Shown piece by piece: positions 21,228-42,998 of a DNA stretch of 50,233 nt. Position 1 is the stretch's first letter, and each line of letters begins with the position of its first letter. Made by a program: the position numbers and the translations under genes. The DNA comes from a bacterium (GTDB taxonomy: Bacteria; Patescibacteriota; Minisyncoccia; UBA6257; GWB1-50-10): positions 1 to 50,233 of the forward strand of contig JAJZPU010000001.1 of NCBI GenBank assembly GCA_021811055.1, in the 5' to 3' direction. The notes beneath the pieces were generated by a model. The model had not been told where the DNA came from, did not search any database, and saw only the letters and a list, made by a program, of their open reading frames with translations.

Positions 21228-22994
21228 ATGAATTCTGAAAACAGAACCTGTCAAAGTTGTAAAAAAATCTTCACGATAGCGAGTGAAGATTTTGATTTCT
21301 ATGAGAAAATAAAAGCGCCTTCGCCCACTTGGTGTCCGGAGTGTCGCTCAATCCGGAGAATGAGCTGGAGGAATGAAAGCTCGCTGTATCGGCATGTATG
21401 CGGATCGTGCAAAAAGCCGATCATAACCATATATTCCCCTCATTATCCGCGGACAATATATTGTAAGGAATGTTGGGTGTCCGATGTATGGGATCCAAAA
21501 ACATATGGCATAGACTACGAGGAAGATACCCCCTTTTTTGTTCAATTCAGGAAGCTTTTTGATACTGTTCCGCTTGTTCTCGCAGATAGGAAAGGCACAA
21601 CCGAAAACAGCGAGTACGGAAACTACAACGGAAATTGCAAAAATTGTTATCTCTGTTTTTCCGTCGCCTTGAGTGAGGACAGCCTCTACTGCGCGAATTC
21701 GCAAGAATTGAAAGAATGCATTGATTCGACAGGATTGCGAAATGGTGAATTGTGTTATGAAGCAGTAGACAGTGAAAAGAATTACAGGTGTATGTTTATC
21801 GAAAGAACCCGCGAAAGTGCCGATTCAAGTTTTCTTTTCGGATGTTCGAATGCGGTGAATTGTTTTATGAGCGCGAACATAAGGAATAAGAGCTATGTAT
21901 TTCGGGGAAAACAGATGAGCGCCGAAGATTATAAGAAAGAAATGACTAAGATCGATATGGGGGATTTTTCCGTTGTCCGGGAATTAAAAAATGAATTCAA
22001 TGCAATGAAGCTACTGGCGTTGCGAAAGCATGCCGAAATAAAAAATTCGATGAATGCCACCGGCGACAACATCACAAATTCAAAAAACGTATTTTACTCT
22101 TTTGATGTAAACGACTCCGAGAATATAAAATATAGCATGAGAATTCTAAAAGGATGCCGTGATATATACGACTGCCATGGTATGGTTGCGGGGGAGCTCG
22201 TATATGAAGGATTTGGTTGTGGATTTTCTCCAAGAAACAACCTCTTCTCTTTTTCGGTTGATGTAAGCCGGAACCTTACCTATTGCGCGATGTGCCATGA
22301 CAGTTCTGATTGTTTCGGATGTGTTGGTCTGAAGAATCAACATTATTGTATTTTAAACAAACAGTACGAAGAAAAAGAATATAAGGAACTTGTTACAAAG
22401 ATTAAAAATCTAATGGATAAAGTCCCCTATACCGACACAAAAGGGAGGGTATACGGATATGGTGAGTTCTTTCCATCGGAGTTGTCTCCCTTCGGATATA
22501 ACGAGACCATAGCGCAGGATAATTTTCCGATTACAAAAGAAGAAGCAGTGACGCAAGGTTTTTTGTGGAAAGATGATGAAAAAAAGAATCATATCCCGAC
22601 GATATTTTCAGATATGATTCCTAAAAACATTACAGACGTGGATGAATCGATTACGAATGAAATTATTCAATGCGAGCATAAAGGATCGTGCAATGAACGG
22701 TGTTCCTCCGCTTTCAAAGTTACCCCTCAAGAATTTTTATTGTATAAAAAACTTTCTGTTCCGATCCCACACCTTTGTCCGAGTTGTCGGCATTTTGAGC
22801 GGTTGAAACGAAGAAATTCCCTCAAACTCTGGCATCGGCAATGCATGTGCGGTCAACCGGCAATGGCGCACCAAAACACCGCAATTCATGAGCACGGGAG
22901 CAGGCCGTGTCCGAATGGGTTTGAAACAAGTTACCCACCCGAACGACCGGAGATTGTATATTGCGAACAATGTTATCAAAAGGAGGTGGTGTAG
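21228..22994 (+). CDS. Cysteine-rich zinc-ribbon/Cys-repeat protein, paralog 1 of 4 (uncharacterised family)
   Basis: The N-terminal module is CQSC..FYEKI..P.PTWCPECR..CGSC..CKEC. The centre is Cys-rich, with ..CFGCVGLKNQHYCILNKQYEEKEY. The C-terminal module ends PERPEIVYCEQCYQKEVV. It has no signal peptide. ATG 21228 lies 5 nt after the tktB stop, and an alternative GTG 21216 overlaps it. Confidence 0.85.
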   Translation: MNSENRTCQSCKKIFTIASEDFDFYEKIKAPSPTWCPECRSIRRMSWRNESSLYRHVCGSCKKPIITIYSPHYPRTIYCKECWVSDVWDPKTYGIDYEEDTPFFVQFRKLFDTVPLVLADRKGTTENSEYGNYNGNCKNCYLCFSVALSEDSLYCANSQELKECIDSTGLRNGELCYEAVDSEKNYRCMFIERTRESADSSFLFGCSNAVNCFMSANIRNKSYVFRGKQMSAEDYKKEMTKIDMGDFSVVRELKNEFNAMKLLALRKHAEIKNSMNATGDNITNSKNVFYSFDVNDSENIKYSMRILKGCRDIYDCHGMVAGELVYEGFGCGFSPRNNLFSFSVDVSRNLTYCAMCHDSSDCFGCVGLKNQHYCILNKQYEEKEYKELVTKIKNLMDKVPYTDTKGRVYGYGEFFPSELSPFGYNETIAQDNFPITKEEAVTQGFLWKDDEKKNHIPTIFSDMIPKNITDVDESITNEIIQCEHKGSCNERCSSAFKVTPQEFLLYKKLSVPIPHLCPSCRHFERLKRRNSLKLWHRQCMCGQPAMAHQNTAIHEHGSRPCPNGFETSYPPERPEIVYCEQCYQKEVV

Positions 22995-23112: not shown

Positions 23113-23877
23113 ATGAGACTTACTCCTTCAAAAAACGCGCATAGAATGGCGGTACAATATCTTCAGCACGAATTCCGAAAGATACTTCCGGAGGTTTTTA
23201 GAACCCAAGGAGGAAGGGTGATCGACCGTGATTTTGAGCGTCTTTCGAAGCGGCAGGGAGAGGTTTCTTTTTGGAATCTTCTCGCCGGCGTATCCGAAGA
23301 CTGGAAGTTAAAATCGGTGTTCCGCGTGCTTTCGGATTCCCGATTTTCCTGGAAAAAGAAAAAAATTCCCGTGAGGGGCATCATTCTTACGGGAATGTCT
23401 CCGCTTATGGACGAATACGTTATAAAAAAATGCGACAGGAGCCCCATTGCATTCGGAGAGATGTGGAAAAAGGATAAAAAAATGAGAGACAAAATAAAAA
23501 AGAGCGGATTTTCCGCGCATTCCGAACGGGATCATTTTCCCATATTCGTAGCGCACGAAGACGGAAAGTACAAAGTTTTTGACGGAATGCGAAGAACACT
23601 TCTCGCGATCATTGGAAATAAGCGATATATAACCGCGTGGGTGGGGGATATGAAAAGAAAAAATGAAAAACCCATCATAAGCGAGGGATTCTGTTATGTT
23701 TTTTCCCAAATATACAAAAACGGAAAAAGAACCAAAAAACAGAATGATGCGTTCGTCGAGGTGGGGAAAATCATTTCGAAAGAGTATGAAAATGGGAGGG
23801 ATGTGCTTAGAACGCGTATAGGGGGATGGTCTCATGATGGACGCATAAAGGAAATTTTTGAAAGAATGATAAAATAA
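23113..23877 (+). CDS. Hypothetical basic protein with possible ParB/Srx-like nuclease-fold core
   Basis: 254-aa Lys-rich ORF. The segment IPVRGIIL...HFPIFVAHEDGKYKVFDGMRRTLLAIIG resembles the ParB N-terminal DGxxR motif. The assignment is tentative. Confidence 0.55.
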   Translation: MRLTPSKNAHRMAVQYLQHEFRKILPEVFRTQGGRVIDRDFERLSKRQGEVSFWNLLAGVSEDWKLKSVFRVLSDSRFSWKKKKIPVRGIILTGMSPLMDEYVIKKCDRSPIAFGEMWKKDKKMRDKIKKSGFSAHSERDHFPIFVAHEDGKYKVFDGMRRTLLAIIGNKRYITAWVGDMKRKNEKPIISEGFCYVFSQIYKNGKRTKKQNDAFVEVGKIISKEYENGRDVLRTRIGGWSHDGRIKEIFERMIK

Positions 23878-23882
23878 TTTTT

Positions 23883-24554
23883 ATGGGAACACTGTATATT
23901 GTCGCGACGCCGATAGGAAATATGAAAGACATCACACTCCGTGCGCTTGAAACGCTGGGGAGCGTCGATCTTGTGCTTGCGGAAGATACGCGCGTCGCAA
24001 AAAAACTCTTATCGCATTACAACATTCAGAAACCGGTGTGGCGTGCCGATGCGCGCGCCGAGCGGGATATTGGAGAAAAAGTGATGCGCGAACTTACGTC
24101 GGGAAAAAATATCGCATTTGTTTCAGATGCGGGAACGCCGAACGTTTCCGATCCCGGGTCCGCAATCGTTGCGTATATCCGCAGCCATACCGTTATCCTA
24201 ATAGTTCCCATTCCGGGCGTATCGGCGATTACCACACTTCTTTCGGTTGCGGGAGTATCGGGTGATGCGTTCGTGTTTCTTGGATACCCGCCGCATAAGA
24301 AGGGAAGAAATACGTTCTTCAAGAAAATGGCGGAAATGGACATCTCCGTGATTTTTTACGAATCGCCGCACAGGATAGAGAAAACGATACAGAATATCGG
24401 GGAATATTGCGGAGAAGATAGGAAAATCTGCATCGGACGCGAGCTTACAAAGATGCACGAAGAGGTATTTTGGGGCACGACAAAAGAAGCGGAAAGCCAT
24501 TTTAAGGGGGAAAGGAAGAAGGGGGAGTTCGTTGTTGTAATTCCGCAAAATTAG
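23883..24554 (+). CDS. rsmI: 16S rRNA (cytidine1402-2'-O)-methyltransferase RsmI
   Basis: 223 aa with GTLYIVATPIGNMKDITLRALETL..VDLVLAEDTR and SDAGTP.VSDPG (tetrapyrrole-methylase fold, RsmI pattern). Confidence 0.9.
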   Translation: MGTLYIVATPIGNMKDITLRALETLGSVDLVLAEDTRVAKKLLSHYNIQKPVWRADARAERDIGEKVMRELTSGKNIAFVSDAGTPNVSDPGSAIVAYIRSHTVILIVPIPGVSAITTLLSVAGVSGDAFVFLGYPPHKKGRNTFFKKMAEMDISVIFYESPHRIEKTIQNIGEYCGEDRKICIGRELTKMHEEVFWGTTKEAESHFKGERKKGEFVVVIPQN

Positions 24555-24577
24555 CACTTGACACCCTCGAGTGCTAA
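24551..24577. promoter_or_regulatory. CIRCE operator (HrcA binding site)
   Basis: TTAGCACTT-N9-GAGTGCTAA is a near-perfect match to the CIRCE inverted repeat TTAGCACTC-N9-GAGTGCTAA, and it lies immediately upstream of hrcA. Confidence 0.9.
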
Positions 24578-24585
24578 TTTATAAT
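24558..24585 (+). promoter_or_regulatory. Consensus promoter TTGACA-16 nt-TATAAT embedded in CIRCE; -10 ends 7 nt before the hrcA ATG
   Basis: TTGACA is at 24558-24563, TATAAT at 24580-24585 and ATG at 24593. Confidence 0.7.
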
Positions 24586-24592
24586 CAGAAAC

Positions 24593-25306
24593 ATGAGGGA
24601 AAGAACGAAAGAGATCCTCGAGGCGGGAGTGCGCCAGTTCATAAAAACCGGGCTTCCTATAACTTCCGAGCGTCTTTTTGAAGAATATGATTTTGGCATC
24701 AAGCCGGCCATGATACGCTGTGAATTGAATATACTCGACGAGGAGGGGTATCTGGAACAAAATCATCCGTCCGGAGGGCGTCGCCCGACGCATAAAGCCT
24801 ACAAACTTTTTGTTGATGGGTTGCTTTCGGACAAAGAAGAATCCTCGCGGCGGGCAAAACAGGCCTTCGGTACGCTCCTTTCTCTTTTTGAACAGGAACG
24901 CAAGGTATTTATAGAACACGTTGCGGACGCGTTTGATTCGTTTATTGCGGGATATGAACCGAAGCGGGAAGAATTTTACGGAAGCGGACTTTCCGATCTT
25001 ATGACGCGTATGGAACTTTCATCGAAGGACGAGGTGGTGCAGGTGGTGGAAGATTTTGAAAACCTTTCCTCTCGCATAGAAGAAGAGCGCCGTTGGTGGG
25101 AACGTGAATCGTCGTGGCCGCAAGTGTTTATCGGCGGGAGTCCGTTTACACGGAGCAGAAATACGTCGATTATTGTCGAACGATTCGACAGGGGAAACGA
25201 GAAATTCTTTTTTGTCATGCTCGGTCCTACGCGCATGGATTACCAGAAATCTATCAATTTTTTTAAAACACTCGAACAGTCGTTATTCGATAAAAAAGAA
25301 GACTAA
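24593..25306 (+). CDS. hrcA: Heat-inducible transcription repressor HrcA (short form)
   Basis: The N-terminal winged-helix region reads ILEAGVRQFIKTGLPITSERL...GIKPAMIRCELNILDEEGYLEQNHPSGGRRPT. Context is CIRCE upstream with grpE-dnaK downstream. At 237 aa it is shorter than typical HrcA. Confidence 0.8.
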   Translation: MRERTKEILEAGVRQFIKTGLPITSERLFEEYDFGIKPAMIRCELNILDEEGYLEQNHPSGGRRPTHKAYKLFVDGLLSDKEESSRRAKQAFGTLLSLFEQERKVFIEHVADAFDSFIAGYEPKREEFYGSGLSDLMTRMELSSKDEVVQVVEDFENLSSRIEEERRWWERESSWPQVFIGGSPFTRSRNTSIIVERFDRGNEKFFFVMLGPTRMDYQKSINFFKTLEQSLFDKKED

Positions 25307-25309
25307 ACT

Positions 25310-25810
25310 ATGGAAAAAGACGAACAAAAAAAAGAGGACGTCTCTTCACAATCGGAAAATTCCGAAAATGAACTTGCGATGTGTAAAAAACAGTGTGATG
25401 AATATTTGGACGGATGGAAGCGCGCGAAGGCGGATTTTATAAATTATAAAAACGATGAAACGGCACGAATACAAAGCCTTTTGAAGTTCGGAAACGAATC
25501 GTTGTTGTACGACGTACTTCCGGTATTCGACAGCTTCGACATGGGCATGGCGGTACTCAAGGAGGATGCGGAAGCAAGGAAAGGAATGAACCTTATTCGT
25601 ACGCAACTTGAAGATGTTATGAAACGGCACGGGCTGGAACCGATCGAGGCCCCTCCCGGCACGCCTTTCGATCCGGCGCGCCACGAGGCAATCGGGGAAA
25701 TGGCGTCGGATATTCCCGAGGGTATGATTGCGGAAGAAACGAAGCGGGGATACGCGTTACACGGAAAAATACTTCGTCCCGCAAAAGTGAAAATAGCAAA
25801 AAAATCGTAG
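25310..25810 (+). CDS. grpE: Nucleotide exchange factor GrpE
   Basis: 166 aa with RAKADFINYKN, LLPVFDSFD-like VLPVFDSFDM and FDP..HEA. Confidence 0.9.
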   Translation: MEKDEQKKEDVSSQSENSENELAMCKKQCDEYLDGWKRAKADFINYKNDETARIQSLLKFGNESLLYDVLPVFDSFDMGMAVLKEDAEARKGMNLIRTQLEDVMKRHGLEPIEAPPGTPFDPARHEAIGEMASDIPEGMIAEETKRGYALHGKILRPAKVKIAKKS

Positions 25811-25834
25811 TCGCATAAAAATAAAATTATACAT

Positions 25835-27775
25835 ATGGCAAAAAAAATAATAGGAATAGACCTTGGTACCACCAATTCGGCGGTAGCGGTCATGGACAAG
25901 GGTGAATTGAAGATCCTCGAAAATCAGGAAGGAAATCGCACGACCCCGTCCGTTGTCGCGCATAGTAAATCGGAGGAACGTCTTGCGGGTATGTCAGCAA
26001 AGCGTCAGGCGGTAGTGAATCCGAAAAACACCATTTTTTCGGTGAAACGTCTTATCGGAAGAAAATTTACGGACGAAGAGATAAAACGCGATAAAAGCGT
26101 GCTTTCGTATGAAATCCGCGAATCTTCGAAGGGGGGAGTGGAAGTGAAAATGGGAGACAAGTGGTATACTCCCGAAGAAATATCGGCAATGATACTTCAA
26201 AAATTGAAGTCGGACGCGGAGGCGCGGCTGGGAGAGAAAATCACCGATGCGGTGATCACCGTGCCGGCATATTTTGATGACAGCCAGCGACAAGCGACAA
26301 AAACCGCGGGAGAAATTGCGGGACTTACCGTACGGAGAATTATCAATGAACCGACCGCTGCGGCGCTCGCATACGGATTGAACAGTAAGAAGAGCGAGCA
26401 GGTGGTGGTTTATGATTTTGGTGGCGGCACATTCGATGTTTCGGTACTTGAAGTTGATTTCGATGCGTTGGGAGGAGACGTGAAGGTGCTTGCAACGGGA
26501 GGAGATACGCACCTTGGAGGGGATGATTTCGATAAACGAATTATCGAACATCTTGTGAGTGAATATAAAAAACAGGAAGGAATAGATATTTCGAAAGATC
26601 CGTTGGCGTTACAGCGACTGAAGGAAGCTGCAGAACGCGCAAAACACGAACTTTCCACGGCAATGGAAACGGAAATCAATCTTCCGTATATCACATCAGA
26701 TGCCAATGGACCGAAACATTTTCTTATGAAGCTCACGCGTGCGAAACTTGAGGATCTGGTTCACGACCTTCTCGAACGATCTATTGTTCTTGTAAAAGAA
26801 GCGGTGACGTCGCCGGCACCGAAAGGAGCAGGTTTAAAGATAGAAGACATCGATGAAATAGTGCTCGTGGGTGGACAAACCAGGATGCCCGCGATGCAGG
26901 AGGCAGTGAAGAAATTGTTTGGAAAAGAGCCGAATAAGAGCATCAATCCCGATGAAGTTGTGGCGCTTGGTGCAGCGGCGCAGGGAGAAATTATTGCGGC
27001 AAAAGACGAGGGGAGGAAGACAGAAGGAGAAGTAAAAGATATTCTTTTGCTTGACGTGACGCCGCTCACACTTTCGATCGAAACACTGGGAAGTGTTGCA
27101 ACGCCGATGATTCCGAAAAATACTACCGTGCCGACCTCGAAAACGCAGGTATTTTCGACAGCGGCGGACAGTCAGACATCAGTTGAAATACACATCGGAC
27201 AGGGGGAGCGTCCGATGATGCCGGACAATAAAACGCTCGGGCGATTTATTCTTGACGGTATTCCGCCGTCGCCTCGAGGCATTCCTCAGATCGAGGTAAC
27301 GTTCGACATCGACGCGAACGGTATTTTGAACGTATCCGCAAAGGACAAAGCGAGTGGAAAATCACAGTCGATACGCATTGAGGCATCAACGAGCTTAAGT
27401 AAGGATGAGGTGGAACGACTGAAGAAAGAAGCGGCCGAACACGCTGCCGAAGACGAAAAGAAAAGGGTGCTTATAGAAGAAAAGAATCGTGCCGAATCAA
27501 TGGTGTATGTTGCGGAAAAAAGTCTGAAGGAAAATGCGGAAAAAATTCCCGCGGACGTGAAGTCGGATGTGGAAGAAAAAATAAAGAAAGTGAACGAGGT
27601 GAAAGATGGGGATGATGCCCAGGGTATTACCGCGGCTGTCGGTGAATTATCCACGGCAATGCAAAAGATAGGCGAATCCTTGTATAATAAAGACACGAAC
27701 CAGGAAACCGGAAATACATCCGGCGGGGAGGAAAGCGGACAAACACCAAATGACACCGGGACCAACAATAACTAG
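25835..27775 (+). CDS. dnaK: Molecular chaperone DnaK (Hsp70)
   Basis: 646 aa with [31 protein letters not shown] and an acidic/Gly-rich tail. Confidence 0.97.
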
Positions 27776-28790
27776 CCAGGCAACGGAAGCCGAGGTGGAT
27801 CGGAATAATCTGAAGATAACGATCCTTGGGATACTCGGCATCGGAGCAAGTATTCTTGCCGCGCGCATTTTTATGGCGCTTCTTGCGGATCTTCGCACCG
27901 ATTATTTTGTTGTGTGGGGAGTATCGGTGTGCGTATTCATAACGCTTCTCATGCTTCAGACTATATTTATAAAGAGCAGAACGAAACTTCAGATGTTGAT
28001 GTTCCTTCAGGGAATCGCTCCGGCGGTACTTCTCTTTGAATATTTTTATCCAGCCGTTTCGTTTCCTCTGTTTATTGGAATATTTCTTTCGTGCTTTTTT
28101 TACATGATAGCGGCAAATAGAGGGTGGACGATACTCGCGAACAGTCTGAATATAAAATTTTCTTTTATAGCAAAAAATACGATTCCCAAAGCGCTTACGG
28201 GAGTCCTTATCTTTTCGAGTTTGTTCGCATATACCTATTATTTTGAAGCGGGAAAATTCACGAAAGATCTCGGACAATCCGTGGTATATCAGTTACTTGA
28301 CGCGTCACAACCACTGGTTGAAATGTGGTTTCCCGGCGTGAGCTTTTCGCAGAGCGGAAAAGAATTTTTTGAAAGAATAGCAACGACACAACTTGAAAAA
28401 ATTCCGTTCGAAGAAGCGGCGAAAAATCCGGCACTTGCCGAGTTCGGAAAATTGCCGGAAAAAGAAAAGCAAAAGATCATCGTTGAGGCCGGGGCGAAGG
28501 TGCGTATCGCGGCGGAAAGTTCGTTTGGCGCGTTTCCCGCGAATGAACCGGTGAAAAATTCCGTGTTTATCATAGTGCAAAGTTGGACAAAAGATATGAA
28601 ACAAAAATTCGGAGATGTTTTTTCAATAGTGCTCACAATCATCATCTTCTTTTCTTTGAAGGGTTTCTTCGCCTTATTTCATTGGCTTGCGGCACTTGTG
28701 GCATTCCTTACCTACAAATTCCTTATTGTGACGGGATTCGCGTATACAAATATAGAGAGTAGAAGTAGGGAGTTTATCCTTTTGTCGTAG
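27750..28790 (+). CDS. Hypothetical multi-pass membrane protein inserted between dnaK and dnaJ
   Basis: 346 aa with ~5 N-terminal TM helices, a ~130-aa hydrophilic domain and 2 C-terminal TM helices. The annotated ATG overlaps the dnaK 3' end by 26 nt, so the start is uncertain. Confidence 0.65.
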
Positions 28791-28895
28791 ACAAAGGAAA
28801 ACTTTAGTTTTTAATTTCCAATTTTTAAATAAATTCAAAATTTCAATATCTAAAGTCCAAAGCCGCATTTAATATTTGGATTTAGTGTTTTATCC

Positions 28896-30005
28896 ATGTC
28901 TAAAGATTATTACAAAATATTAGGAGTTGAACGAAATGCATCTGACGATGAGGTGAAAAAAGCGTATCGAAAACTCGCGCATCAACATCACCCCGATAAA
29001 CAAGGAGGTGATGAAAAAAAATTCAAAGAGATAAATGAGGCATACCAGGTGCTTTCAAGCAAGGAAAAGCGCGCGCAGTACGATCAGTTCGGGACCACAT
29101 TCGACGCCGCTGCGGCCGGAGGTTCGGGTGGATTTTCCGGATTCGGAGGTTTCAATCCGAACGATTTTCAGAACTGGAATTTTCAGGAGGGATTCGGCGG
29201 AAATGATTTCGGTGATATATTCGAAACGATTTTTGAACAATTTGGTGGAGGGCGGGGACGGAAACAGGAAAGTGATCATCGTGGAGGAGATGCCGAAACG
29301 GAAGAGGTCCTTACCCTCGAAGAGGCGTTTCGTGGAGTGGATCGTGTAATAAAATTCAAAACGCACATATCGTGTCTAAAGTGTGGCGGTGCGGGTCATG
29401 ACGCGGCGAAAGGATTCGGAACGTGCGCAAAATGCAAGGGAAAGGGAGAGATCCGTGTAGAGCGAAAAACGGTGTTCGGGAATTTTTCACAGATCGCAGT
29501 ATGCGATACGTGTAGAGGGAGCGGAAAGACGCCGAATGCGATATGTTCCGTATGCGGAGGAAAGGGGCGAGTTTCAGATATGAGGGAAGTAAAATTTTCC
29601 ATTGCCCCCGGAATTGAGGATGGGCAAATACTTCAGATACGGGGCGGAGGAGAAGCGGGAGAGCGCGGCGCACGATCGGGAGATTTGTTTGTGCGCATCC
29701 GCGTGAAGCCCCATGCCGTTTTTTCCCGAGAGAAGGAGAATCTTTTTATGAAGAAGGATATTCGTGCGACCGACGCATTACTTGGAAAGAAGATAGTTGC
29801 GAAAGACATCGGAGGGGAGGAGTTTCACTACTTTGTACCGGAAGATTTTGATATGAGCCAACCTCTGAAGATAAGAGGAAAAGGAATGCCGAAATTTGGG
29901 TCGTCATCCCGCGGAGATTTGTACATACAATTTTCAATAAAAACACCGAAAAAACTCTCGAAAAAAGCAAAAGAACTCCTGGAGGAACTGGATGGAGAAA
30001 TTTGA
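28896..30005 (+). CDS. dnaJ: Molecular chaperone DnaJ
   Basis: Has the J domain (DYYKILGV...HPDK), a G/F region, and four CxxCxGxG zinc motifs ([32 protein letters not shown]). Confidence 0.95.
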
Positions 30006-37609: not shown

Positions 37610-37681
37610 GGTCCCATCGTCTAACGGTTAGGACACCGCCCTCTCACGGCGGTAATAGGAGTTCGATTCTCCTTGGGACTA
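37610..37681 (+). tRNA. tRNA-Glu (anticodon CTC), CCA not encoded
   Basis: Manual cloverleaf: acceptor GGTCCCA/TGGGACT, anticodon stem CCGCC/GGCGG with loop CTCTCAC, T-arm AGGAG-TTCGATT-CTCCT, discriminator A. It closely resembles canonical bacterial tRNA-Glu. Confidence 0.9.
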
Positions 37682-37682
37682 C

Positions 37683-37730: not shown

Positions 37731-37890
37731 GGAGAATCGAACGGGAAAGGGGTCGGGAAAACGGAAGTTTTCCCGTGTAGGAAAACAGTCCGCCGACTGG
37801 CGGACGTTAGAAACCGAGAGGTGTCTAAAGAGTCCCGAACGAAGTTGAGGGACGACGTGAGATTCTCCTTGGGACTGTGAAGTTGAGGGC
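37731..37890 (+). ncRNA. Comparatively GC-rich structured non-coding segment between tRNA-Glu and the Cys-rich paralog cluster (unknown RNA element)
   Basis: Hairpin CGGGAAAAC-GGAA-GTTTTCCCG (37754-37775) has a GNRA loop. A second hairpin is GTCCGCC-GACT-GGCGGAC (37788-37805). GGAGAATC (37731-37738) is complementary to GATTCTCC (37861-37868). AGTCCC (37831-37836) is complementary to GGGACT (37871-37876). The direct repeat GAAGTTGAGGG occurs at 37841 and 37879. Confidence 0.35.
37861..37876 (+). repeat. Exact 16-nt duplicate of the tRNA-Glu 3' end (GATTCTCCTTGGGACT; original at 37665-37680)
   Basis: Direct sequence identity over 16 nt with a 196-bp offset. This is an att-like arrangement, but no integrase is present. 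Confidence 0.9.
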
Positions 37891-37918
37891 GATTTTTATT
37901 TTGGGTATGATTAAAGCA

Positions 37919-39631
37919 ATGGATTTGGAAACAAAACTTTGTCAGAATTGTCGGAGAAATTTTACGATAGAAAGCGAGGATTTTAATTTCTACAAAAAAA
38001 TAGATGTACCGCCCCCGACATGGTGCCCCATGTGCCGGAGGGAACGGCTTTTGTCGTGGAGAAACGAGCGGACGCTTTATAAACGGAAATGTGCCGCAAC
38101 GGGAAAGGATATTGTTTCAATATTTTCTCCGGATGGTCCGATTAATGCCTATGAGCGGGATTATTGGTGGAGTGATGCGTGGGATGCCCGACAATTCGGT
38201 ATGGAATACGATTTTTCGATTCCATTTTTCACTCAATTCAGGAAACTTATGGAGCGTGTTCCGATGCCCTCGGTATTCAACAGTACTTGCGTGAACAGCA
38301 ATTATTGCAACCATGTCGCGAAGTCGAAAGATTGTTATTTCGTATTCGCGTCGTTTCAAAACGAGAACCTCGTGTATTCTTCTCAATGTGGTGACGTTCG
38401 TGATTCTTCCGATATTTTGACGGCAAACAGCTCCGAATTGTGTTATGAGGTGATAAAAGGCATGAAATTGTATCATGTGCTTTTTGCGGAGAATTCGGAA
38501 AACTGCAACGATTGCGCGTTCATCTACGACTGCAAGGGATGTCAGCAGTGCTTCGGATGTACGAATTTGCGGAATAAATCATATTATTTCTTCAATACTC
38601 CCTGCACGAAAGAGGAGTATCAGGAAAAGATAAAAGAATTCGATCTCGGAAAGAGAAGCGACATCAAGCGGGCATGGACGCTTTTTGAGGCGGAAAAATT
38701 AAAGGCAATCCGTCGCCCGGCATTTTTTGTGAATACGACCAATTCGACGGGAGATTATCTCGATCAGTGCGATTCGTGTAAATATTGTTTCGGTATCCGC
38801 ATGGGGGGACGAAACTGCAAATATTGCATGAATGGGGGATACACGTTGAACGATTCATACGACACATTCGGATGTGGCGATAATGGTGAATTGATATACG
38901 AATCGGTGGACGCGGGACTCAGTGGCTCACGATTTTTGTTCGATGTGGTGGCATATGGGGGGACAAATGTGGAATACAGTCTGAATTGTCACGGTTCGGA
39001 AAATCTCTTCGGCTGTATCGGTCTTCGGAATAAGCGGTACTGTATTTTGAATAAGGAATATACAAAAGAAGAATACGAAATACTGATACCGAAAATTAAG
39101 GCGCATATGAAAGAAATACCCTATATCGATACAAAGGGGCGGACCTATTCATATGGAGAATTCTTTCCTACGGAACTGTCGCTATTCGCATACAATGAGT
39201 CGCTTGCATATGAGCATTTTCCCTACACAAAAGAAGTTATCGAAAGACGGGGATATCCATGGAGAGATCTTCCGAAAAACGAATATGCGATTACCGTACA
39301 TACCGAAAATATTCCCGAAAGCATAGCCGATGTTTTCGAGGATATCACAAAAGAGGTCCTTGAGTGCGGACATAAGCGGACGTGTCTCGACAACTGTGTC
39401 GGCGCATTTCGTATTACGCCACAGGAATTTTCATTATATAAAAAAATAGGCGTCTCACTTCCGGAACTGTGTCCGAACTGCAGGCACATGGAACGGATAA
39501 AAAGAGCGAATCCGTTTTTCTTGTGGAAGAGAAATTGCGGAAAATGTGGAGTGTCAATGGAAACAACGTATGCTCCCGAAAGACCGGAAATTGTGTATTG
39601 CGAAGAGTGCTATCAGGGTGAGATCTATTAA
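37919..39631 (+). CDS. Cysteine-rich zinc-ribbon/Cys-repeat protein, paralog 2 of 4
   Basis: The start is chosen by alignment with the paralogs (MDLETKLCQNCRRNFTIESEDFNFYKKIDVPPPTWCPMCR) and TATGAT 37906-37911 lying 7 nt upstream. The track start GTG 37877 and ATG 37907 are alternatives. The C-terminus is ...CGKCGVSMETTYAPERPEIVYCEECYQGEIY. Confidence 0.85.
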   Translation: MDLETKLCQNCRRNFTIESEDFNFYKKIDVPPPTWCPMCRRERLLSWRNERTLYKRKCAATGKDIVSIFSPDGPINAYERDYWWSDAWDARQFGMEYDFSIPFFTQFRKLMERVPMPSVFNSTCVNSNYCNHVAKSKDCYFVFASFQNENLVYSSQCGDVRDSSDILTANSSELCYEVIKGMKLYHVLFAENSENCNDCAFIYDCKGCQQCFGCTNLRNKSYYFFNTPCTKEEYQEKIKEFDLGKRSDIKRAWTLFEAEKLKAIRRPAFFVNTTNSTGDYLDQCDSCKYCFGIRMGGRNCKYCMNGGYTLNDSYDTFGCGDNGELIYESVDAGLSGSRFLFDVVAYGGTNVEYSLNCHGSENLFGCIGLRNKRYCILNKEYTKEEYEILIPKIKAHMKEIPYIDTKGRTYSYGEFFPTELSLFAYNESLAYEHFPYTKEVIERRGYPWRDLPKNEYAITVHTENIPESIADVFEDITKEVLECGHKRTCLDNCVGAFRITPQEFSLYKKIGVSLPELCPNCRHMERIKRANPFFLWKRNCGKCGVSMETTYAPERPEIVYCEECYQGEIY

Positions 39632-39637
39632 TGTTCT

Positions 39638-41284
39638 ATGCAAAAGATTTGCGAACACTGTAAAAAAGAATTTTCGATAACGAATGAAGAGCTCGGAATG
39701 TACGAAAAACTCGGGTTGGAACTTCCCCGAATATGCTTTTTCTGCAGAGTAAGCCTTCATTTTTCGGTATGGCCGTTCGGAAAATTCAGAAAAACAAAAT
39801 CAGATCTTTCGGGAGAAAGTATGATCACGGTGCTTTCGGCGCAAAAGAGATACCCGATCTATACACTTCACGAGTGGCATAGTGACGCGTGGGATGGGAT
39901 TGATTATGGAAAGGAATATGATCCATCAAGACCGTTTTTCGATCAGATGAAGGAGCTGCAAGAAAAGGTGCCGCGTCCGCATCAGGGGGCGGGGAACAGC
40001 ACGAATTGTGACTGGTGCGATGATGTGTGGAATTCGAAGAATTGTTACCTTTCACGATCAATGGAGGAATGTGAAGACCTCTACTATGCATACCGCGTAT
40101 TTCGCGGGAAGAATTCAATCGACCTCGTATTTTGTTTTGATTCTAATAATTGCTATGACTGCACGTACTGTTTCAATTCTTACGACCTCTTCTATTCACA
40201 GAATTCCCGCGATTGCATGAATTCATATTTTCTCTTTGACTGCAGGAACTGTTCAAATTGTTTTATGTGTTGGAATTTACGCGGAAAATCATATTGTATC
40301 GAGAATATACAATATTCGAAGGAGGAATACCTTGAGAAAATCGGATCATTTCAACTTACGTCATTTAAGTCAATTCAGAATTTTCGAATCCAATTCGGTG
40401 AGATGGTAAAAAAGAATGTTGTGCATCGGGAAAATTTCAATATCAGGGCAAATAATTCCGAAGGGGAATTTCTTCTGGATATGAATAATGCCCACAATTG
40501 TTTCGGAATCCAGTTTTCCGAAGAGTGTTACAACTGCGTGCGTGGTTTGACCGACAAAACGAACATTGACGCGAACGGATGTTGGTACGCAGAATTTGTG
40601 GGAAATTCGAGCTCGTGCGTGAATGCGTATGCGATGAAATATTCCTCATGGTCATCGGGTCGTTTTTCCGAATATCTCGATCTTTGCAAGGAGTGCGAAT
40701 ATTGTTTCGGATGCGTGGGACTTAAAAATAAAAAATATTGTATTTTGAACACACAGTACACGAAGGAAGAATACGAAGCGCTTCGGGAAAAAGTTATTGG
40801 AGATATGAAAGCGAGGGGAGAGTACGGGTCGTTTTTCCCGTATGCAATGAGTACCGGTCCATACAATTTTTCGACAAGCTATAGCTATTTTCCCGAAAAA
40901 ACAAAAGAAGAAATTCTCGCGCTTGGAGGATATTGGGAAGATATCGATGAAACCCGTACGGAAGGCATGCCGACCGCGGAATTGCCGGACGATATTCGCG
41001 ACGTTCCCGATTCAATTATCGCACAGGCGCTCATTTGTCCCGTATCGGGCTGGCGTTTCAATATTGCGCAGAGAGAGCTGGAATTCTATAAACAGAAGGG
41101 TGTTCCTCTTCCGCGCGTGCATTTTGATGTGCGCATCAAAGAGCGCATGAAATATCTTACGGTATTGAAACCAACGGAGCGTGCGTGCGTGTTTTGTGGA
41201 AAGAATATGCGCGTCTATTATCCAAAAGAGTGGAAATATGAGAAAATTGCATGTACGGAGTGTTATCAAAAAGAAGTGGCGTAA
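39638..41284 (+). CDS. Cysteine-rich zinc-ribbon/Cys-repeat protein, paralog 3 of 4 (most diverged)
   Basis: Starts MQKICEHCKKEFSITNEELGMYEKLGLELPRICFFCR. The central motifs are CFMCWNLRGKSYCIENIQYSKEEY and CFGCVGLKNKKYCILNTQYTKEEY. The C-terminus is CVFCGK...CTECYQKEVA. It begins 7 nt after paralog 2. Confidence 0.85.
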   Translation: MQKICEHCKKEFSITNEELGMYEKLGLELPRICFFCRVSLHFSVWPFGKFRKTKSDLSGESMITVLSAQKRYPIYTLHEWHSDAWDGIDYGKEYDPSRPFFDQMKELQEKVPRPHQGAGNSTNCDWCDDVWNSKNCYLSRSMEECEDLYYAYRVFRGKNSIDLVFCFDSNNCYDCTYCFNSYDLFYSQNSRDCMNSYFLFDCRNCSNCFMCWNLRGKSYCIENIQYSKEEYLEKIGSFQLTSFKSIQNFRIQFGEMVKKNVVHRENFNIRANNSEGEFLLDMNNAHNCFGIQFSEECYNCVRGLTDKTNIDANGCWYAEFVGNSSSCVNAYAMKYSSWSSGRFSEYLDLCKECEYCFGCVGLKNKKYCILNTQYTKEEYEALREKVIGDMKARGEYGSFFPYAMSTGPYNFSTSYSYFPEKTKEEILALGGYWEDIDETRTEGMPTAELPDDIRDVPDSIIAQALICPVSGWRFNIAQRELEFYKQKGVPLPRVHFDVRIKERMKYLTVLKPTERACVFCGKNMRVYYPKEWKYEKIACTECYQKEVA

Positions 41285-41294
41285 GTCATATTAT

Positions 41295-42998
41295 ATGAAC
41301 AACGAACAAAGAACGTGCCAAAATTGCAAAAAAGATTTCACGATTGAAAGTGAAGACCTTGCGTTTTACGAAAAAATAAATGTACCGCCGCCGACCTGGT
41401 GCCCGAAATGCAGGCTTATCCGCAGGTTTTCTTTTATGAACTTGTGGAGTTTGTATAAACGAAAATGCTCGAAGTGTGGTAAATCAATGGTGAGTATACA
41501 TCCGGAAAATACAGAGTTCCCAGTGTATTGTCAGCCGTGTTGGTGGGCGGACGACTGGGATGGAACCGAATATGCGATTGAATATGATTCAAACCGCCCG
41601 TTTCTTCAGCAGGTACAGGAACTCGCGAAAAAAACACCATACATGGGTCTTGAGAGCGCATATCTTACCAATACAAATTGTGATTACACAAACGGGACGG
41701 CATATTCAAAAAATTGTTATATGACATTTTGGGCTGATTATTGTGAGAATGTCTATTATTCAATATTTCTCTTTAACCTCCGCGACTCACTTAATTGTTA
41801 CCGGATGAAGGACAGTGAGCTTTGTTATGAAGATGTTGGATGTTATAAGTGTTATGGTACGTATTATTCCGAAGAATGTGATTCGTGTACCGATATATGG
41901 TTTTCTCGTTCTTGTATTGGATGTTCACATTGTTTCGGATGTATTAATTTACGAAATAAAAGCTACTGTATCTTTAATGAGCAGTATTCAAAAGAGAAAT
42001 ATTTTGAAAAACTGAAGGAGTTTAATCTCTCTTCGTATTTCGCATTGGAAAATATAAAAAGAAAAGTTTATGAGTTATGGTTACAACATCCCCGTAGAGC
42101 ATATATAGGAAATAGCTTGAATGTAAATGTGACGGGTGACTATGTATATGAGTCCAAGAATTCACGTGATGCCTATATGGTAAGTGGCGTTGAAGATTCT
42201 CGATTTACTCAGTTTATTTCAGTGGCAAAGGCGCACGACTCTTATGACTATACCGGATGGGGGAATGGGGCAGAACGCATTTATGAATCATGCGTCGTTG
42301 GAGAGGGGGCGAATAATATAAAGTTTTCAAATGAATGCTGGCCCGACGTATTAAATGTTGAATATTCAATTTATGGAATTACATGCAAAAATATTATTGG
42401 ATGTGTGAATCTTAAGCGTAAGGAATATTGTATTTTGAACAAACAGTATACAAAAGAGGAATATGAAAAATTATCTGCGCATATCCGCAAAGATATGGAA
42501 CAGAATCCTTATAGCGATGTTGTGGGTCGTGTATGGAAATACGGTGAATTTTTACCATACGAACTCTCTCCCTTTTCTTACAATCAGACGATAGCGCTGG
42601 CATTTTTTCCAAAAGAAAAAGAAGAAGTCTTGGGAGAGGGAATAAAATGGCGCGAAACGGAGGAAAATGAATATCCAATCACGATGCGAGCTCAGGATAT
42701 TCCCGATTCGATTGAGAATACCGACGAATCTATTCTGAAGGAAGTTATCGCCTGTGAAAATTGTGGGAAGGCATATAAAATTCTTCAGGGAGAACTTGAT
42801 ATACTGAAGAGATTTTCCCTGCCCCTGTATCATCATTGTTCGATATGTCGAAGAAATATTTTATTTTCGAAGACAAATCTGCCGTATCTCTATGATAGGA
42901 GTTGTATGAAGTGCGGTAAGGCGATAAAAACTTCGTATGCTCCCGAAAGACCGGAAATAGTCTATTGCGAGGAATGCTATCAGGCGGAAATAGCGTAG
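41295..42998 (+). CDS. Cysteine-rich zinc-ribbon/Cys-repeat protein, paralog 4 of 4
   Basis: ATG 41295 gives MNNEQRTCQNCKKDFTIESEDLAFYEKINVPPPTWCPKCR..CSKCGK..CQPCW. The track start 41181 would overlap paralog 3. The C-terminus is CENCGK..CSICR..CMKCGKAIKTSYAPERPEIVYCEECYQAEIA. Confidence 0.85.
   Translation: MNNEQRTCQNCKKDFTIESEDLAFYEKINVPPPTWCPKCRLIRRFSFMNLWSLYKRKCSKCGKSMVSIHPENTEFPVYCQPCWWADDWDGTEYAIEYDSNRPFLQQVQELAKKTPYMGLESAYLTNTNCDYTNGTAYSKNCYMTFWADYCENVYYSIFLFNLRDSLNCYRMKDSELCYEDVGCYKCYGTYYSEECDSCTDIWFSRSCIGCSHCFGCINLRNKSYCIFNEQYSKEKYFEKLKEFNLSSYFALENIKRKVYELWLQHPRRAYIGNSLNVNVTGDYVYESKNSRDAYMVSGVEDSRFTQFISVAKAHDSYDYTGWGNGAERIYESCVVGEGANNIKFSNECWPDVLNVEYSIYGITCKNIIGCVNLKRKEYCILNKQYTKEEYEKLSAHIRKDMEQNPYSDVVGRVWKYGEFLPYELSPFSYNQTIALAFFPKEKEEVLGEGIKWRETEENEYPITMRAQDIPDSIENTDESILKEVIACENCGKAYKILQGELDILKRFSLPLYHHCSICRRNILFSKTNLPYLYDRSCMKCGKAIKTSYAPERPEIVYCEECYQAEIA

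Follow-up and report, generated by a model that had tools for sequence, protein, structure and literature searches.

A Cysteine-Rich Zn-Finger and β-Solenoid Protein Family of Patescibacteria With a Possible Role Beside Hsp70 and Soluble VirD4-Like ATPases

Introduction

In Thermus thermophilus, DafA and ClpB are Hsp70 partners encoded in the dnaK operon, and in mitochondria Hsp70 is escorted by a Zn-ribbon protein, Hep1/Zim17; we take both arrangements as precedents for additional partners of Hsp70. Type IV coupling proteins (T4CPs) recognize C-terminal signals of protein substrates; DNA translocation is the typical activity of T4CP, FtsK, and HerA ATPases, and several defense systems contain ATPases of the HerA/FtsK type. 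Zn ribbons often bind nucleic acids, LIM domains are protein–protein docking modules, and the zf_Tbcl (PF13451), zf_Tbcl_2 (PF23477), and TIGR04272 families have, to our knowledge, no assigned function. In 2,918 Patescibacteria genomes, 5,713 VirD4-like T4CPs have been found, just 148 of them near virB4, and the authors write of exaptation that it “cannot be ruled out” (PMC12102498). [quoted passage not shown]

The window analyzed here is a 50,233-nucleotide stretch of contig JAJZPU010000001.1, from a genome of the CPR/Patescibacteria type, in keeping with the streamlined genome assumed in the original prediction. It encodes four paralogs (A–D) of a Cys-rich family. In relatives, members of this family recur beside Hsp70-system genes and two T4CP-like ATPases, a context that resembles that of DafA/ClpB (small assembly factors and a hexameric ATPase in a dnaK operon) and of Hep1/Zim17 (a Cys4 Zn-ribbon binder of Hsp70). 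However, DafA, ClpB, and the zf-DNL domain have no sequence or structural similarity to the family, and the ATPases belong to the FtsK/HerA/VirD4 superfamily, not to AAA+. These neighbors are P-loop ATPases like VirD4, TrwB, and TraG, but differ from type IV coupling proteins in lacking an N-terminal transmembrane (TM) anchor and in lying away from virB4, between dnaK and dnaJ; relaxase or known effector features are absent from the family. In Cys4 spacing and in predicted β-hairpin-plus-helix topology, the terminal modules agree with zf_Tbcl, zf_Tbcl_2, and TIGR04272. These three are single small domains, however, and cover less than 25% of a family protein, leaving the core of two solenoids (R1 and R2) and the linker outside.

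Gene Copies and Genomic Setting

The tandem triplet with a distant fourth copy of the same architecture, as originally described, was recovered in full (Table 1): A and B are separated by 6 nt and B and C by 10 nt, and the four proteins are 33–43% identical (34, 42, and 43% against A). Paralog A has its longest ORF from GTG 37877, and a start at its second ATG (37919) suits the family N-terminus at least equally well; for paralog C, gene callers also give a longer 586-aa form, which would overlap B. No additional family fragments were found in the window.

Table 1. Positions of the family genes, of the predicted parts of paralog C, and of selected neighboring features in the window.
Feature	Position	Strand	Description
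Paralog D	21228..22994	+	588 aa
Chaperone context	24551..30005	+	CIRCE (24551-24577), hrcA, grpE, dnaK, 346-aa membrane protein, dnaJ
tRNA-Glu(CTC)	37610..37682	+	Between murF and the A-B-C triplet
Paralog A	37907..39631	+	574 aa
Paralog B	39638..41284	+	548 aa, most divergent copy
Paralog C	41295..42998	+	567 aa, copy used for the AlphaFold2 model
C residues 1-100	41295..41594	+	Putative treble-clef finger ZnA (C8, C11, C36, C39), then CxxC-x17-CxxC finger ZnB (C58, C61, C79, C82)
C residues 115-250	41637..42044	+	Predicted β-solenoid R1, Cys/Ser ladder
C residues 265-405	42087..42509	+	Predicted β-solenoid R2, duplicate of R1; terminates in GCVNLKRKEYCILNKQYTKEEY cap and helix
C residues 406-479	42510..42731	+	Conserved acidic linker domain, PYxDxxGRxxxYGEFxPxELSPFxYN ... 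W452
C residues 480-567	42732..42998	+	Putative fingers ZnA′ (C487, C490, C515, C518), then ZnB′ (C537, C540, C558, C561)

The surroundings are of the housekeeping kind with no obvious island, as had been noted: the triplet stands in the order murF–tRNA-Glu–[A B C]–sua5–gpsA, and D in the order transketolase–[D]–...–hrcA–grpE–dnaK, 1.6 kb upstream of hrcA–grpE–dnaK. Neither the long nor the short T4CP-like ATPase is encoded in the 50-kb window, and the dnaK–dnaJ spacer holds an unrelated membrane protein, so that linkage of the family to the Hsp70 and ATPase genes is, in terms of gene order, not obligatory; arrays distant from all chaperone genes also exist in other loci, such as L001, L020, and L022. 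The only CIRCE element in the window is that of the hrcA operon, and none was found near family genes or in related loci. Because CIRCE is limited to the hrcA operon, heat-shock co-regulation of the family is unsupported.

In the closest relative (L001), a tRNA-Glu gene likewise precedes the array, and the C ortholog occupies the matching murF–tRNA-Glu ... sua5 slot. Only one of the four family genes of the window has an ortholog there, and array composition thus turns over between close relatives. The two C orthologs are 86% identical in amino-acid sequence, with a dN/dS of ~0.04, whereas the neighboring Sua5 (67%) and MurF (71%) are less conserved.

Domain Architecture and Predicted Fold

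The family proteins consist, in order, of a pair of treble-clef Zn fingers, β-solenoids R1 and R2, a linker, and a second pair of Zn fingers. In the AlphaFold2 model of C (pLDDT 96.2, pTM 0.93), R1 and R2 are all-β with a 12-residue periodicity, and the last coils of each solenoid are narrow, with 12 residues per turn and a lining of Cys, Ser, and Ala. R1 of C terminates in a C207-x2-C210-x2-C213-x2-C216 ring, an NLRNKSYC cap, and a helix. Both internal repeats that had been proposed are strongly borne out by hhalign, for the N-terminal against the C-terminal Zn module (Prob 99.8, E 1e-28) and for Cys block 1 against block 2 (Prob 99.95, E 1e-38); the C-terminal module of C is thus a duplicate of its N-terminal module, and ZnB′ gives the top zf_Tbcl_2/TIGR04272 match as well as the LIM-like match.

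The sequences contain the motifs CFGCxNLRNKxYCIxNxQYSKEEY and YGEFFPxELSPFxYN and, at the C-terminus, YAPERPEIVYCEECYQ. The four motif modules of the original prediction are present overall, with the exceptions of ZnB in A and B and of the ZnA′ Cys and the PYxD portion of the third motif in B. In A, the N-terminal CxxC-x17-CxxC finger, the second of its pair, is degenerate, with one Cys remaining; in B, the ZnB Cys are missing and most Cys of ZnA′, the first C-terminal finger, are also gone. Conservation across the family is concentrated in the finger modules, solenoid caps, and linker, and the wide N-terminal portions of the solenoids are variable. The conserved residues are of the Cys, aromatic, Gly, Pro, and Asn types, and no conserved His or catalytic-looking residue set was seen across the family. 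Relatives of the linker domain of C were not found in the PDB. The mean Kyte–Doolittle hydropathy over 19 residues never exceeds 1.09, leaving no segment hydrophobic enough for a signal peptide or TM helix, and the proteins are probably cytoplasmic, as proposed before.

Likeness of the core to known folds is of a general kind. Foldseek ranks left-handed β-helix (LβH) acyltransferases and γ-carbonic anhydrase (GlmU, LpxD, LpxA, Cam) at the top for the likewise all-β R1 and R2 (E 1e-4), but with TM-scores of 0.07–0.12 and an rmsd of ~17 Å (range 15–21 Å) there is no real superposition, and in the predicted models the likeness is one of fold class only. A hexapeptide-repeat LβH transferase was rejected, as the LβH core is not superposable and no Pfam hexapeptide-repeat match appears at E up to 1; active-site residues of acyltransferases or carbonic anhydrases are also absent from the family. 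The Tenebrio antifreeze protein (TmAFP, 1ezg), a secreted, disulfide-bonded protein of 84 aa with TCTxSxxCxxAx repeats, shares only the 12-residue period and the inward Cys ladder; with a PDB profile E of 8.4 and no signal peptide in the paralogs, an antifreeze β-helix of this type was also rejected. The second finger of LIM domains (CRP1/CRP2; PDB 1cxx, 1ibi, 1ctl) shares with ZnB the C-x2-C-x17-C-x2-C-Y spacing and a KCGK...YC..CY signature. The match covers half a domain at marginal, non-significant E-values (0.004–0.06), and the family does not have the tandem LIM organization of eukaryotic type, so that homology to the LIM domain, as judged from these alignments, is unproven.

Family Assignment and Distribution

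Pfam and NCBIfam gave only sub-threshold matches at the protein termini. PF23477 scores 25.7 bits in C (residues 533–564), 19 in A, and 14.6 in D, against a curated cut-off of 27 bits; TIGR04272 scores 20, 16.7, and 13.3 bits in window paralogs (NCBIfam cut-off 36 bits); and PF13451 matches D alone (residues 6–44) at 16.7 bits (cut-off 24 bits). Full zf_Tbcl_2/TIGR04272 membership was thus rejected for the window proteins, which, with several orthologs carrying precomputed PF23477 matches, appear to be borderline zf_Tbcl_2 members at the domain level. The DnaJ-type Zn finger (PF00684, CXXCXGXG) matches none of the paralogs and does match the DnaJ encoded in the window. PADLOC-DB returned no match for any of the four paralogs at E ≤0.01, the PDB sequence search gave nothing significant for the core, and Foldseek gave only generic β-helix likeness. 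The core therefore remains unplaced, as the original prediction of an unassigned family had it; neither a known-family match nor annotated homologs came to light, and homologs are very common, none of them functionally annotated.

The family comprises ~2,200 clusters (50% identity, E<1e-30), always labeled “hypothetical” in databases, and, by the sequences retrieved, appears to be restricted to Patescibacteria and chiefly to Paceibacteria. Up to 9 copies stand in tandem, in an array of 17.7 kb, and no copies were found on viral contigs.

Linkage to Hsp70 and T4CP-Like ATPase Genes

In relatives, family genes (F, with the subfamily in parentheses) form part of a super-operon with the order grpE–F(B)–F(D)–dnaK–long T4CP-like ATPase–F(A)–short T4CP-like ATPase–dnaJ. 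Gene order was counted in 80 genome loci drawn by family member and, reciprocally, in 80 metagenome loci drawn by short ATPase, and the counts from both samples are inflated by synteny conserved by descent and come from phylogenetically non-independent loci. In the first sample, a T4CP-like ATPase occurs in 31 of 80 loci, often in the same orientation at a distance of <100 nt, and DnaJ in 9. A neighbor cluster containing DnaK, which also includes MreB-like ORFs, is found in 15 of the 80, full-length DnaK (632–651 aa) being present in 6 of these. In the reciprocal sample, the short ATPase is preceded by a family gene at <1 kb in 46 of 57 informative loci, and at least one full-length family gene stands between the two ATPases in 36 of 45. 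The subfamilies keep distinct places: A-like copies precede the short ATPase (38 of 51 cases), and paralog A resembles the subfamily immediately upstream of that gene; B-like copies lie directly 3′ of grpE (6 of 10 loci that show grpE), where orthologs of B are 52–65% identical; and D-like copies precede dnaK (8 of 12 cases).

Both ATPases have P-loop (GKSGxGKT/S) and Walker B-like DEFQN motifs, and no TM segments were found in them. Their Pfam matches are TrwB_AAD_bind, T4SS-DNA_transf, TraG-D_C, and DUF87. The long ATPase carries zf_Tbcl_2 (E 4e-13, 49 bits), a Zn finger type common to the family. No secretion system stands beside these two secretion-type ATPases. The linkage to the Hsp70 operon and soluble T4CP-like ATPases, which is the strongest functional clue, did not figure in the original prediction.

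Proposed Role and Alternative Explanations

By guilt by association, we tentatively propose that family members are cytoplasmic, non-enzymatic docking or specificity subunits of a module of Hsp70 and soluble T4CP-like ATPases. They would act with GrpE, DnaK, DnaJ, and two soluble VirD4/TrwB-like hexameric ATPases (T4CP, HerA/FtsK superfamily), the latter apparently turned by exaptation away from type IV secretion. Docking of the protein to the machine may be the task of its terminal Zn fingers, which are of the same type as that of the long ATPase; since LIM domains are protein–protein docking modules, the LIM-like finger is consistent with this. The diversified solenoid faces could provide each ancient paralog with a separate client or partner, which would explain why many divergent copies are kept, each under strong purifying selection. 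The window would then represent a state of loosened linkage, with D still upstream of the dnaK operon and A, B, and C moved to the murF–tRNA-Glu/sua5 slot. The broader and rather doubtful form of this proposal is an undescribed cytoplasmic machine of Paceibacteria, in which two exapted VirD4-like hexameric ATPases work with GrpE, DnaK, and DnaJ and the family supplies client-specific adaptors or scaffolds. If true, this would be a lineage-specific protein-remodeling or translocation system and would account for the “orphan” T4CP genes that have been reported by the thousand from Patescibacteria.

A role in nucleic-acid handling is unlikely. In such a role, the four terminal Zn ribbons would bind DNA or RNA, and the family would join the two FtsK/TrwB-like ATPases in a machine that moves or processes nucleic acids, as in uptake, segregation, or repair; proximity to chaperone genes would be a matter of history. 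The relatives of the ATPases (T4CP, TrwB, FtsK, HerA) are DNA pumps, in agreement with the Pfam matches, and the same neighborhood data fit such a role. In ZnA and ZnA′, the helix after the second CxxC is Arg-rich (CRxxRR), the Zn modules are mildly basic (pI ~8–9 in three of the four paralogs), and a Foldseek search of BFVD pairs the fingers with “zinc-ribbon” and HNH-associated ones of phages. However, the whole proteins are acidic (pI 5.5–6.4, family median 6.1), as are the solenoids and linker, and no nuclease, helicase, or recombinase recurs among the neighbors in the sample drawn by family member. The placement of three subfamilies beside three Hsp70-system genes (grpE, dnaK, and the dnaJ side) is also hard to call an accident.

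Distinctly improbable is that members are cargo, recognized by the T4CP-like ATPases through the near-invariant C-terminal module, kept export-competent by DnaK/DnaJ, and then transferred into the episymbiont's host. The many divergent paralogs without a Sec signal, the turnover of arrays, and the conserved C-terminus would all suit a set of substrates. Yet the ATPases have no membrane anchor, and such ATPases almost never adjoin virB4 in Patescibacteria (PMC12102498). Purifying selection on C exceeds that on MurF and Sua5, unlike in typical effectors, and four tightly folded Zn modules with a rigid solenoid would make poor secretion substrates; the absence of viral-contig copies and of matches to PADLOC (anti-phage defense) models is a further point against.

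The original prediction was of a multi-metal (Zn or Fe–S) protein with a Cys content of ~8–10%. The counted content is lower, at 6.0–6.2% (33–35 Cys per protein), and the metal-binding idea stands for the terminal modules, with up to four Cys4 fingers: these treble-clef modules are, from their motifs, probable Zn sites, the four-Cys arrangement of CxxC-x17-CxxC being present in ZnB′. Cys conservation in the family is 97% in ZnB′ and 45–81% in ZnB, which is complete in C and D and degenerate in A and B. The central Cys blocks fare otherwise, forming mostly a replaceable ladder: every third solenoid residue is small and inward-facing, and Cys exchanges freely with Ser, Ala, Thr, and Val, so that central columns are 15–94% Cys across the family, most of them 15–75%. 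Paralog D has lost the majority of its central Cys, and whole Cys sets are gone from B and D. Because the central Cys mostly form the inward Cys/Ser ladder of a narrow solenoid in the model, obligate Fe–S sites there are unlikely. The CxxCxxCxxC ring at the R1 end, conserved at 77–94%, is one possible metal site (C207/210/213/216 in C). Ferredoxin-type (CxxCxxCxxxCP) and radical-SAM motifs are absent from the four paralogs and there is no invariant cluster motif; on sequence motifs, a ferredoxin-type or other Fe–S protein was rejected.

It is quite improbable that the family serves primarily as a Zn store or buffer, an Fe–S carrier, or an Hsp33-like thiol redox sensor or chaperone. The abundance of Cys and the conserved ring would fit such a function, a redox-regulated holdase would be at home beside Hsp70, and the divalent-ion tolerance protein CutA1 is a recurrent neighbor, in 8 of the 80 loci drawn by family member (Pfam match made on the L022 copy). 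Against it stands the Cys variability just described, and simple buffering needs neither elaborate conserved non-Cys surfaces nor ancient paralog specialization.

Least probable by far is an anti-phage or anti-host immunity module built from variable paralog arrays and HerA-like ATPases: the divergent tandem paralogs and weak ATPase matches to the PADLOC mad8, HerA, and DndH models recall defense systems, but the family has neither PADLOC matches nor viral copies, its context is one of housekeeping genes and its purifying selection strong, and the short ATPase, 84–98% identical over >100 clusters (90% identity level), behaves as a core gene.

Family Genes in the Window

The cysteine-rich protein family is represented in the window by four paralogous genes, termed A to D, which together take up ~14% of its sequence. 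The ORF lists bear out the tandem triplet and distant fourth copy of the original prediction, with A, B, and C lying back-to-back on the forward strand and D apart from them, and the gaps of 6 nt (A/B) and 10 nt (B/C) agree with the spacing of 6–10 nt that had been claimed. No additional family fragments are found in the window by tblastn. The motifs that the paralogs had been said to share are reproduced in a MAFFT alignment, in which the other three proteins are 34, 42, and 43% identical to A. Cysteine content had been overestimated, as it is 6.0–6.2% (33–35 Cys per protein) rather than 8–10%. Hydropathy averaged over 19 residues peaks at no more than 1.09, and the proteins therefore have no signal peptide or TM helix, as predicted. 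Near-identical B proteins are on record under the name 'hypothetical protein.'

Coordinates of the family genes and of other features in the window
Feature	Position	Strand	Remarks
554-aa ORF	86–1750		No family assignment
1371-aa ORF	1868–5983		No family assignment; weak fn3 match only
Transketolase N-terminal (TPP-binding) gene	19276–20136		Upstream of D
Transketolase C-terminal (pyrimidine-binding and C domain) gene	20210–21223		Directly upstream of D
Paralog D (fourth copy)	21228–22994	+	ORF lists
254-aa ORF	23113–23877		Between D and TP_methylase gene; no family assignment
CIRCE operator, TTAGCACTTGACACCCTCGAGTGCTAA	24551–24577		Near-perfect, one mismatch; 15 nt upstream of hrcA
346-aa polytopic membrane protein	27750–28790		Between dnaK and dnaJ; overlaps dnaK by 26 nt
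Paralog A	37907–39631	+	ORF lists; longest ORF starts at GTG 37877
Paralog B	39638–41284	+	ORF lists
Paralog C	41295–42998	+	ORF lists; longest ORF starts at GTG 41181

Distribution, Arrays, and Selection

A word-index search returns more than 5,700 relatives (a lower bound), and all the named relatives among them are 'hypothetical proteins' of Patescibacteria (Nomura-, Jorgensen-, Lipton-, and Brenner-bacteria, and Paceibacterota). When 1.84 billion representatives (clusters at 50% identity) are searched exhaustively with an HMM, 4,945 match at E<1e-3, of which 2,200 remain at E<1e-30, and almost all of the best 150 matches are full-length, with ~520–610 aa. Across GTDB species, each represented by one genome, more than 590 family stretches are found, nearly all in Patescibacteria; no family members are found in IMG/VR viral contigs. 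Family arrays are also present on two MAG contigs labelled Burkholderiales and Gammaproteobacteria (JAMPXW010000001.1 and CAYJLM010000079.1; loci L013 and L056), labels that are probably binning errors, and many other family contigs carry the doubtful label 'uncultured Candidatus Saccharibacteria'; the taxonomic range should therefore be read with care. A large part of bacterial diversity falls within Patescibacteria, whose lineage-specific genes mostly lack a known function. With ~2,200 clusters and arrays of up to nine copies, the present family is among the larger of their lineage-specific families.

At least two family copies, all on one strand, are present in 48 of 80 fetched genome loci, and the largest array in this sample comprises nine copies in 17.7 kb (L022); Patescibacteria with such arrays have genomes of around 1 Mb. 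In the closest relative of the window (L001), the same slot, murF–tRNA-Glu ... sua5, contains four family copies, of which only one has an ortholog among the window genes (C, 86% identity) and the other three are 40–43% identical to any window copy, so that array content turns over quickly. Individual subfamilies are strongly conserved. Between C and its L001 ortholog, dN/dS is ~0.04 (with dS saturated at ~1.8), and amino-acid identity to L001 is lower for MurF (71%) and Sua5 (67%) than for C. The copies are ancient paralogs, each under strong constraint, and constraint above that of core enzymes such as MurF and TsaC, as measured on paralog C, sets the family apart. Clustering of 180 full-length members at 45% identity gives 27 groups, with B forming a group of its own, C in a group of 39 members, and A and D together in one broad group.

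Architecture and Predicted Fold

Profile–profile comparison of sub-alignments of 154 diverse members reveals two internal duplications (residue numbers are those of paralog C). Residues 1–100 match residues 470–567 (Prob 99.8, E 1e-28), with each half-module pairing with its counterpart (ZnA/ZnA', E 1e-22; ZnB/ZnB', E 4e-13), and residues 115–250 match residues 265–405 (R1/R2; Prob 99.95, E 1e-38). These duplications give the order [ZnA-ZnB]-[R1]-[R2]-linker-[ZnA'-ZnB'], in which the outer brackets are N- and C-terminal pairs of Cys4 fingers and R1 and R2 are central repeats. A first AlphaFold2 run with 58 mostly orthologous sequences gave pLDDT of 60–75 for R1 and R2 and no Foldseek match, and a second run with 143 diverse sequences gave pLDDT of 96.2 and pTM of 0.93. 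In the second model, the fingers are treble clefs (a β-hairpin plus a helix), whereas R1 (~130–226) and R2 (~266–380) are all-β solenoids with a 12-residue period in their last coils (DSSP pattern EEEE--E--E--), each capped by a helix and the conserved segment NLRNKxYCIxNxQYSKEEY. Overall, the protein is a soluble scaffold in which both the Zn fingers and the β-solenoids are duplicated internally.

This architecture is confident and unclassified. Matches of the four paralogs in Pfam and NCBIfam are sub-threshold and limited to the terminal fingers (zf_Tbcl, zf_Tbcl_2, and TIGR04272 CxxC-x17-CxxC), and a BFVD search gives matches at the Zn-ribbon level only. In a PDB sequence search, no significant match is obtained with the whole-family profile or with those of the N-terminal module, the R1–R2 core, or the linker, and ZnB and ZnB' marginally resemble the second finger of LIM domains. 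Foldseek comparison of the second model with the PDB returns left-handed β-helix proteins only (GlmU, LpxD, LpxA, and γ-carbonic anhydrase); E reaches 1e-4, yet TM-scores are 0.07–0.12 and rmsd is ~17 Å, and homology of R1 and R2 to these proteins was rejected. The likeness of the predicted solenoids to left-handed β-helices is one of fold class, not of homology. The core fold is unclassified in every library searched, and the original view of an unassigned family holds: the family is real and uncharacterized.

Linkage to Hsp70 Genes and T4CP-Like ATPases

When all ORFs of the 80 genome loci are clustered, the commonest non-family neighbor is a P-loop ATPase (46 ORFs in 31 loci), often <100 nt from a family gene and on the same strand. 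Next in frequency are a cluster of DnaK and MreB-like ORFs, found in 15 of the 80 loci (six with full-length DnaK), and DnaJ, found in nine. The ATPase belongs to the VirD4/TrwB/TraG–HerA group in Pfam, contains P-loop and DEFQN (Walker B-like) motifs in the sequences listed, and occurs in a short class (~490 aa) and a long class (700–900 aa), TM segments being absent from both. The long ATPase has a zf_Tbcl_2 finger (E 4e-13), the finger type of the family itself, and a long low-complexity tail. The short ATPase, named 'type IV secretion system DNA-binding domain-containing protein' by NCBI, retains 84–98% identity over more than 100 clusters defined at 90% identity (e.g., L072:8513–9979 and relatives in L081–L160), compared with ~61% for DnaK and ~40% for DnaJ of the same loci relative to the window proteins, which suggests a hub-like core function.

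A reciprocal sample of 80 metagenome loci, chosen by the short ATPase alone, contains a recurrent operon, dnaK–long ATPase–family genes (zero to four)–short ATPase–dnaJ. A family gene lies <1 kb upstream of the short ATPase in 46 of 57 informative loci, and at least one full-length family gene lies between both ATPases in 36 of 45, counts that come from loci sharing ancestry and not phylogenetically independent. The slots are specific to subfamilies: the member immediately before the short ATPase resembles A in 38 of 51 cases, and that immediately before dnaK resembles D in 8 of 12. Ten loci show grpE, and in six of them it is followed at <100 nt by the start of a B-like ortholog (52–65% identity to window B). 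Thus, the ancestral layout was roughly grpE-F(B)-F(D)-dnaK-ATPlong-F(A)+n-ATPshort-dnaJ, where F denotes a family member resembling the paralog in parentheses. The linkage to GrpE, DnaK, DnaJ, and two soluble T4CP-like ATPases is conserved and subfamily-specific.

Some DnaJ genes beside the family encode only 217–218 aa (L004:9782–10435, L061:7308–7961, and L053:9825–10481); in Pfam, those of L004 and L061 have the J domain and C-terminal domain, with no match for the CXXCXGXG Zn finger. A gene for M17 leucyl aminopeptidase is located inside two of the largest arrays (L022:2789–4315 and L066:3024–4499), and a small CutA1 (divalent-ion tolerance) gene is near family genes in 8 of the 80 loci (including L022:610–924).

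Candidate Functions

The gene context makes the family more interesting than could be seen in the original prediction. On the basis of this context, we tentatively propose that the family proteins serve as non-enzymatic docking or specificity subunits in a Paceibacteria-specific module that would join Hsp70 with exapted T4CP-like ATPases. The occurrence of the family in the window without these ATPases counts against this possibility, as neither the window nor the 4 kb preceding it contains a T4CP-like ATPase. Residues conserved family-wide are Cys, aromatic residues, Gly, Pro, Asn, and a few Asp or Arg, and the conservation analysis finds no conserved His or obvious catalytic set across the family. 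The ends, caps, and linker are conserved and the solenoid bodies are variable, with conservation lowest where R1 and R2 are wide, in their N-terminal portions.

Among the other readings, a nucleic-acid machine is unlikely, and it is improbable that the proteins are cargo exported by the T4CPs whose genes adjoin theirs. A metal (as first proposed) or redox protein is hardly a probable reading either. A defence system is very improbable; a PADLOC scan of all four paralogs gives no match.

In columns across 154 members, the finger cysteines are conserved at 92–96% (ZnA), 45–81% (ZnB), 72–99% (ZnA'), and 97% (ZnB'). Zn binding by these terminal fingers is credible by analogy, because the CxxC-x17-CxxC domain of M. 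mazei small proteins binds Zn as determined by ICP-MS (PMC12704099). In the central blocks, R1 has a small residue at every third position from 129 to 216, and its Cys columns are spaced by 12 residues (141/153/165/177, 183/195/207, 186/198/210, and 213/225), with Cys interchanging mainly with Ser, then with Ala, Thr, and Val. Only the C207/C210/C213/C216 ring (77–94%) and C370/C379 (90–97%) are well-conserved central cysteines, and paralog D has lost most of those in R1. This pattern characterizes inward-facing packing ladders of narrow solenoids, not obligate metal clusters, and the Fe–S or multi-metal reading of the central blocks is to be dropped on these column statistics.

As for the proposed Hsp70–ATPase module, no description of the Cys-rich family, its domains (including the R domain), or a dnaK–T4CP linkage in CPR was found in the literature. 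A 2025 survey reports 5,713 VirD4-like T4CP homologs in 2,918 Patescibacteria genomes, of which 148 are near virB4, raising the question of a non-T4SS role for these homologs, and its authors note that exaptation 'cannot be ruled out' (PMC12102498). The operon slots beside soluble VirD4-like ATPases offer a testable handle on the role that the ~5,700 Patescibacteria T4CP homologs play outside T4SS. If the link is functional, Hsp70 would gain a new partner system and the FtsK/VirD4 ATPase fold a new use.

Organization of the Window Locus

The order in the window is CIRCE, hrcA, grpE, dnaK, the 346-aa polytopic membrane protein gene, and dnaJ. Paralog D precedes hrcA by 1.6 kb, so that its position ahead of dnaK is preserved, and A, B, and C are displaced to ~8 kb downstream of dnaJ. 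The membrane protein, which has no Pfam match and no homolog in the 160 fetched loci, fills the slot that ATPases and family genes occupy in other Paceibacteria; the 254-aa ORF likewise has no homolog in the fetched loci. Neither a CIRCE-like site nor an hrcA homolog is found next to dnaK in the 160 related loci, and HrcA/CIRCE control therefore seems specific to the window lineage. Heat-shock co-regulation is not supported, as the only CIRCE in the window is the one before hrcA and the 160 related loci have none.

The last 16 nt of tRNA-Glu, GATTCTCCTTGGGACT (37665–37680), are repeated exactly 196 nt downstream (37861–37876), just before A, against a chance expectation of 0.02 matches. The second copy is bracketed by an 11-nt repeat, GAAGTTGAGGG (37841–37851 and 37879–37889), and the spacer between the 16-mers contains a strong 18-bp terminator-like hairpin and GC-rich hairpins, with no Rfam match. 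Integration of the triplet as a mobile island was considered and rejected: the 16-mers enclose only ~180 nt, and the L001 array is preceded by the same tRNA, so that nothing indicates insertion of the triplet. The repeat resembles the scar of an old integration or duplication more than an edge of the triplet. Directly 5' of paralog D, transketolase is split into two genes.
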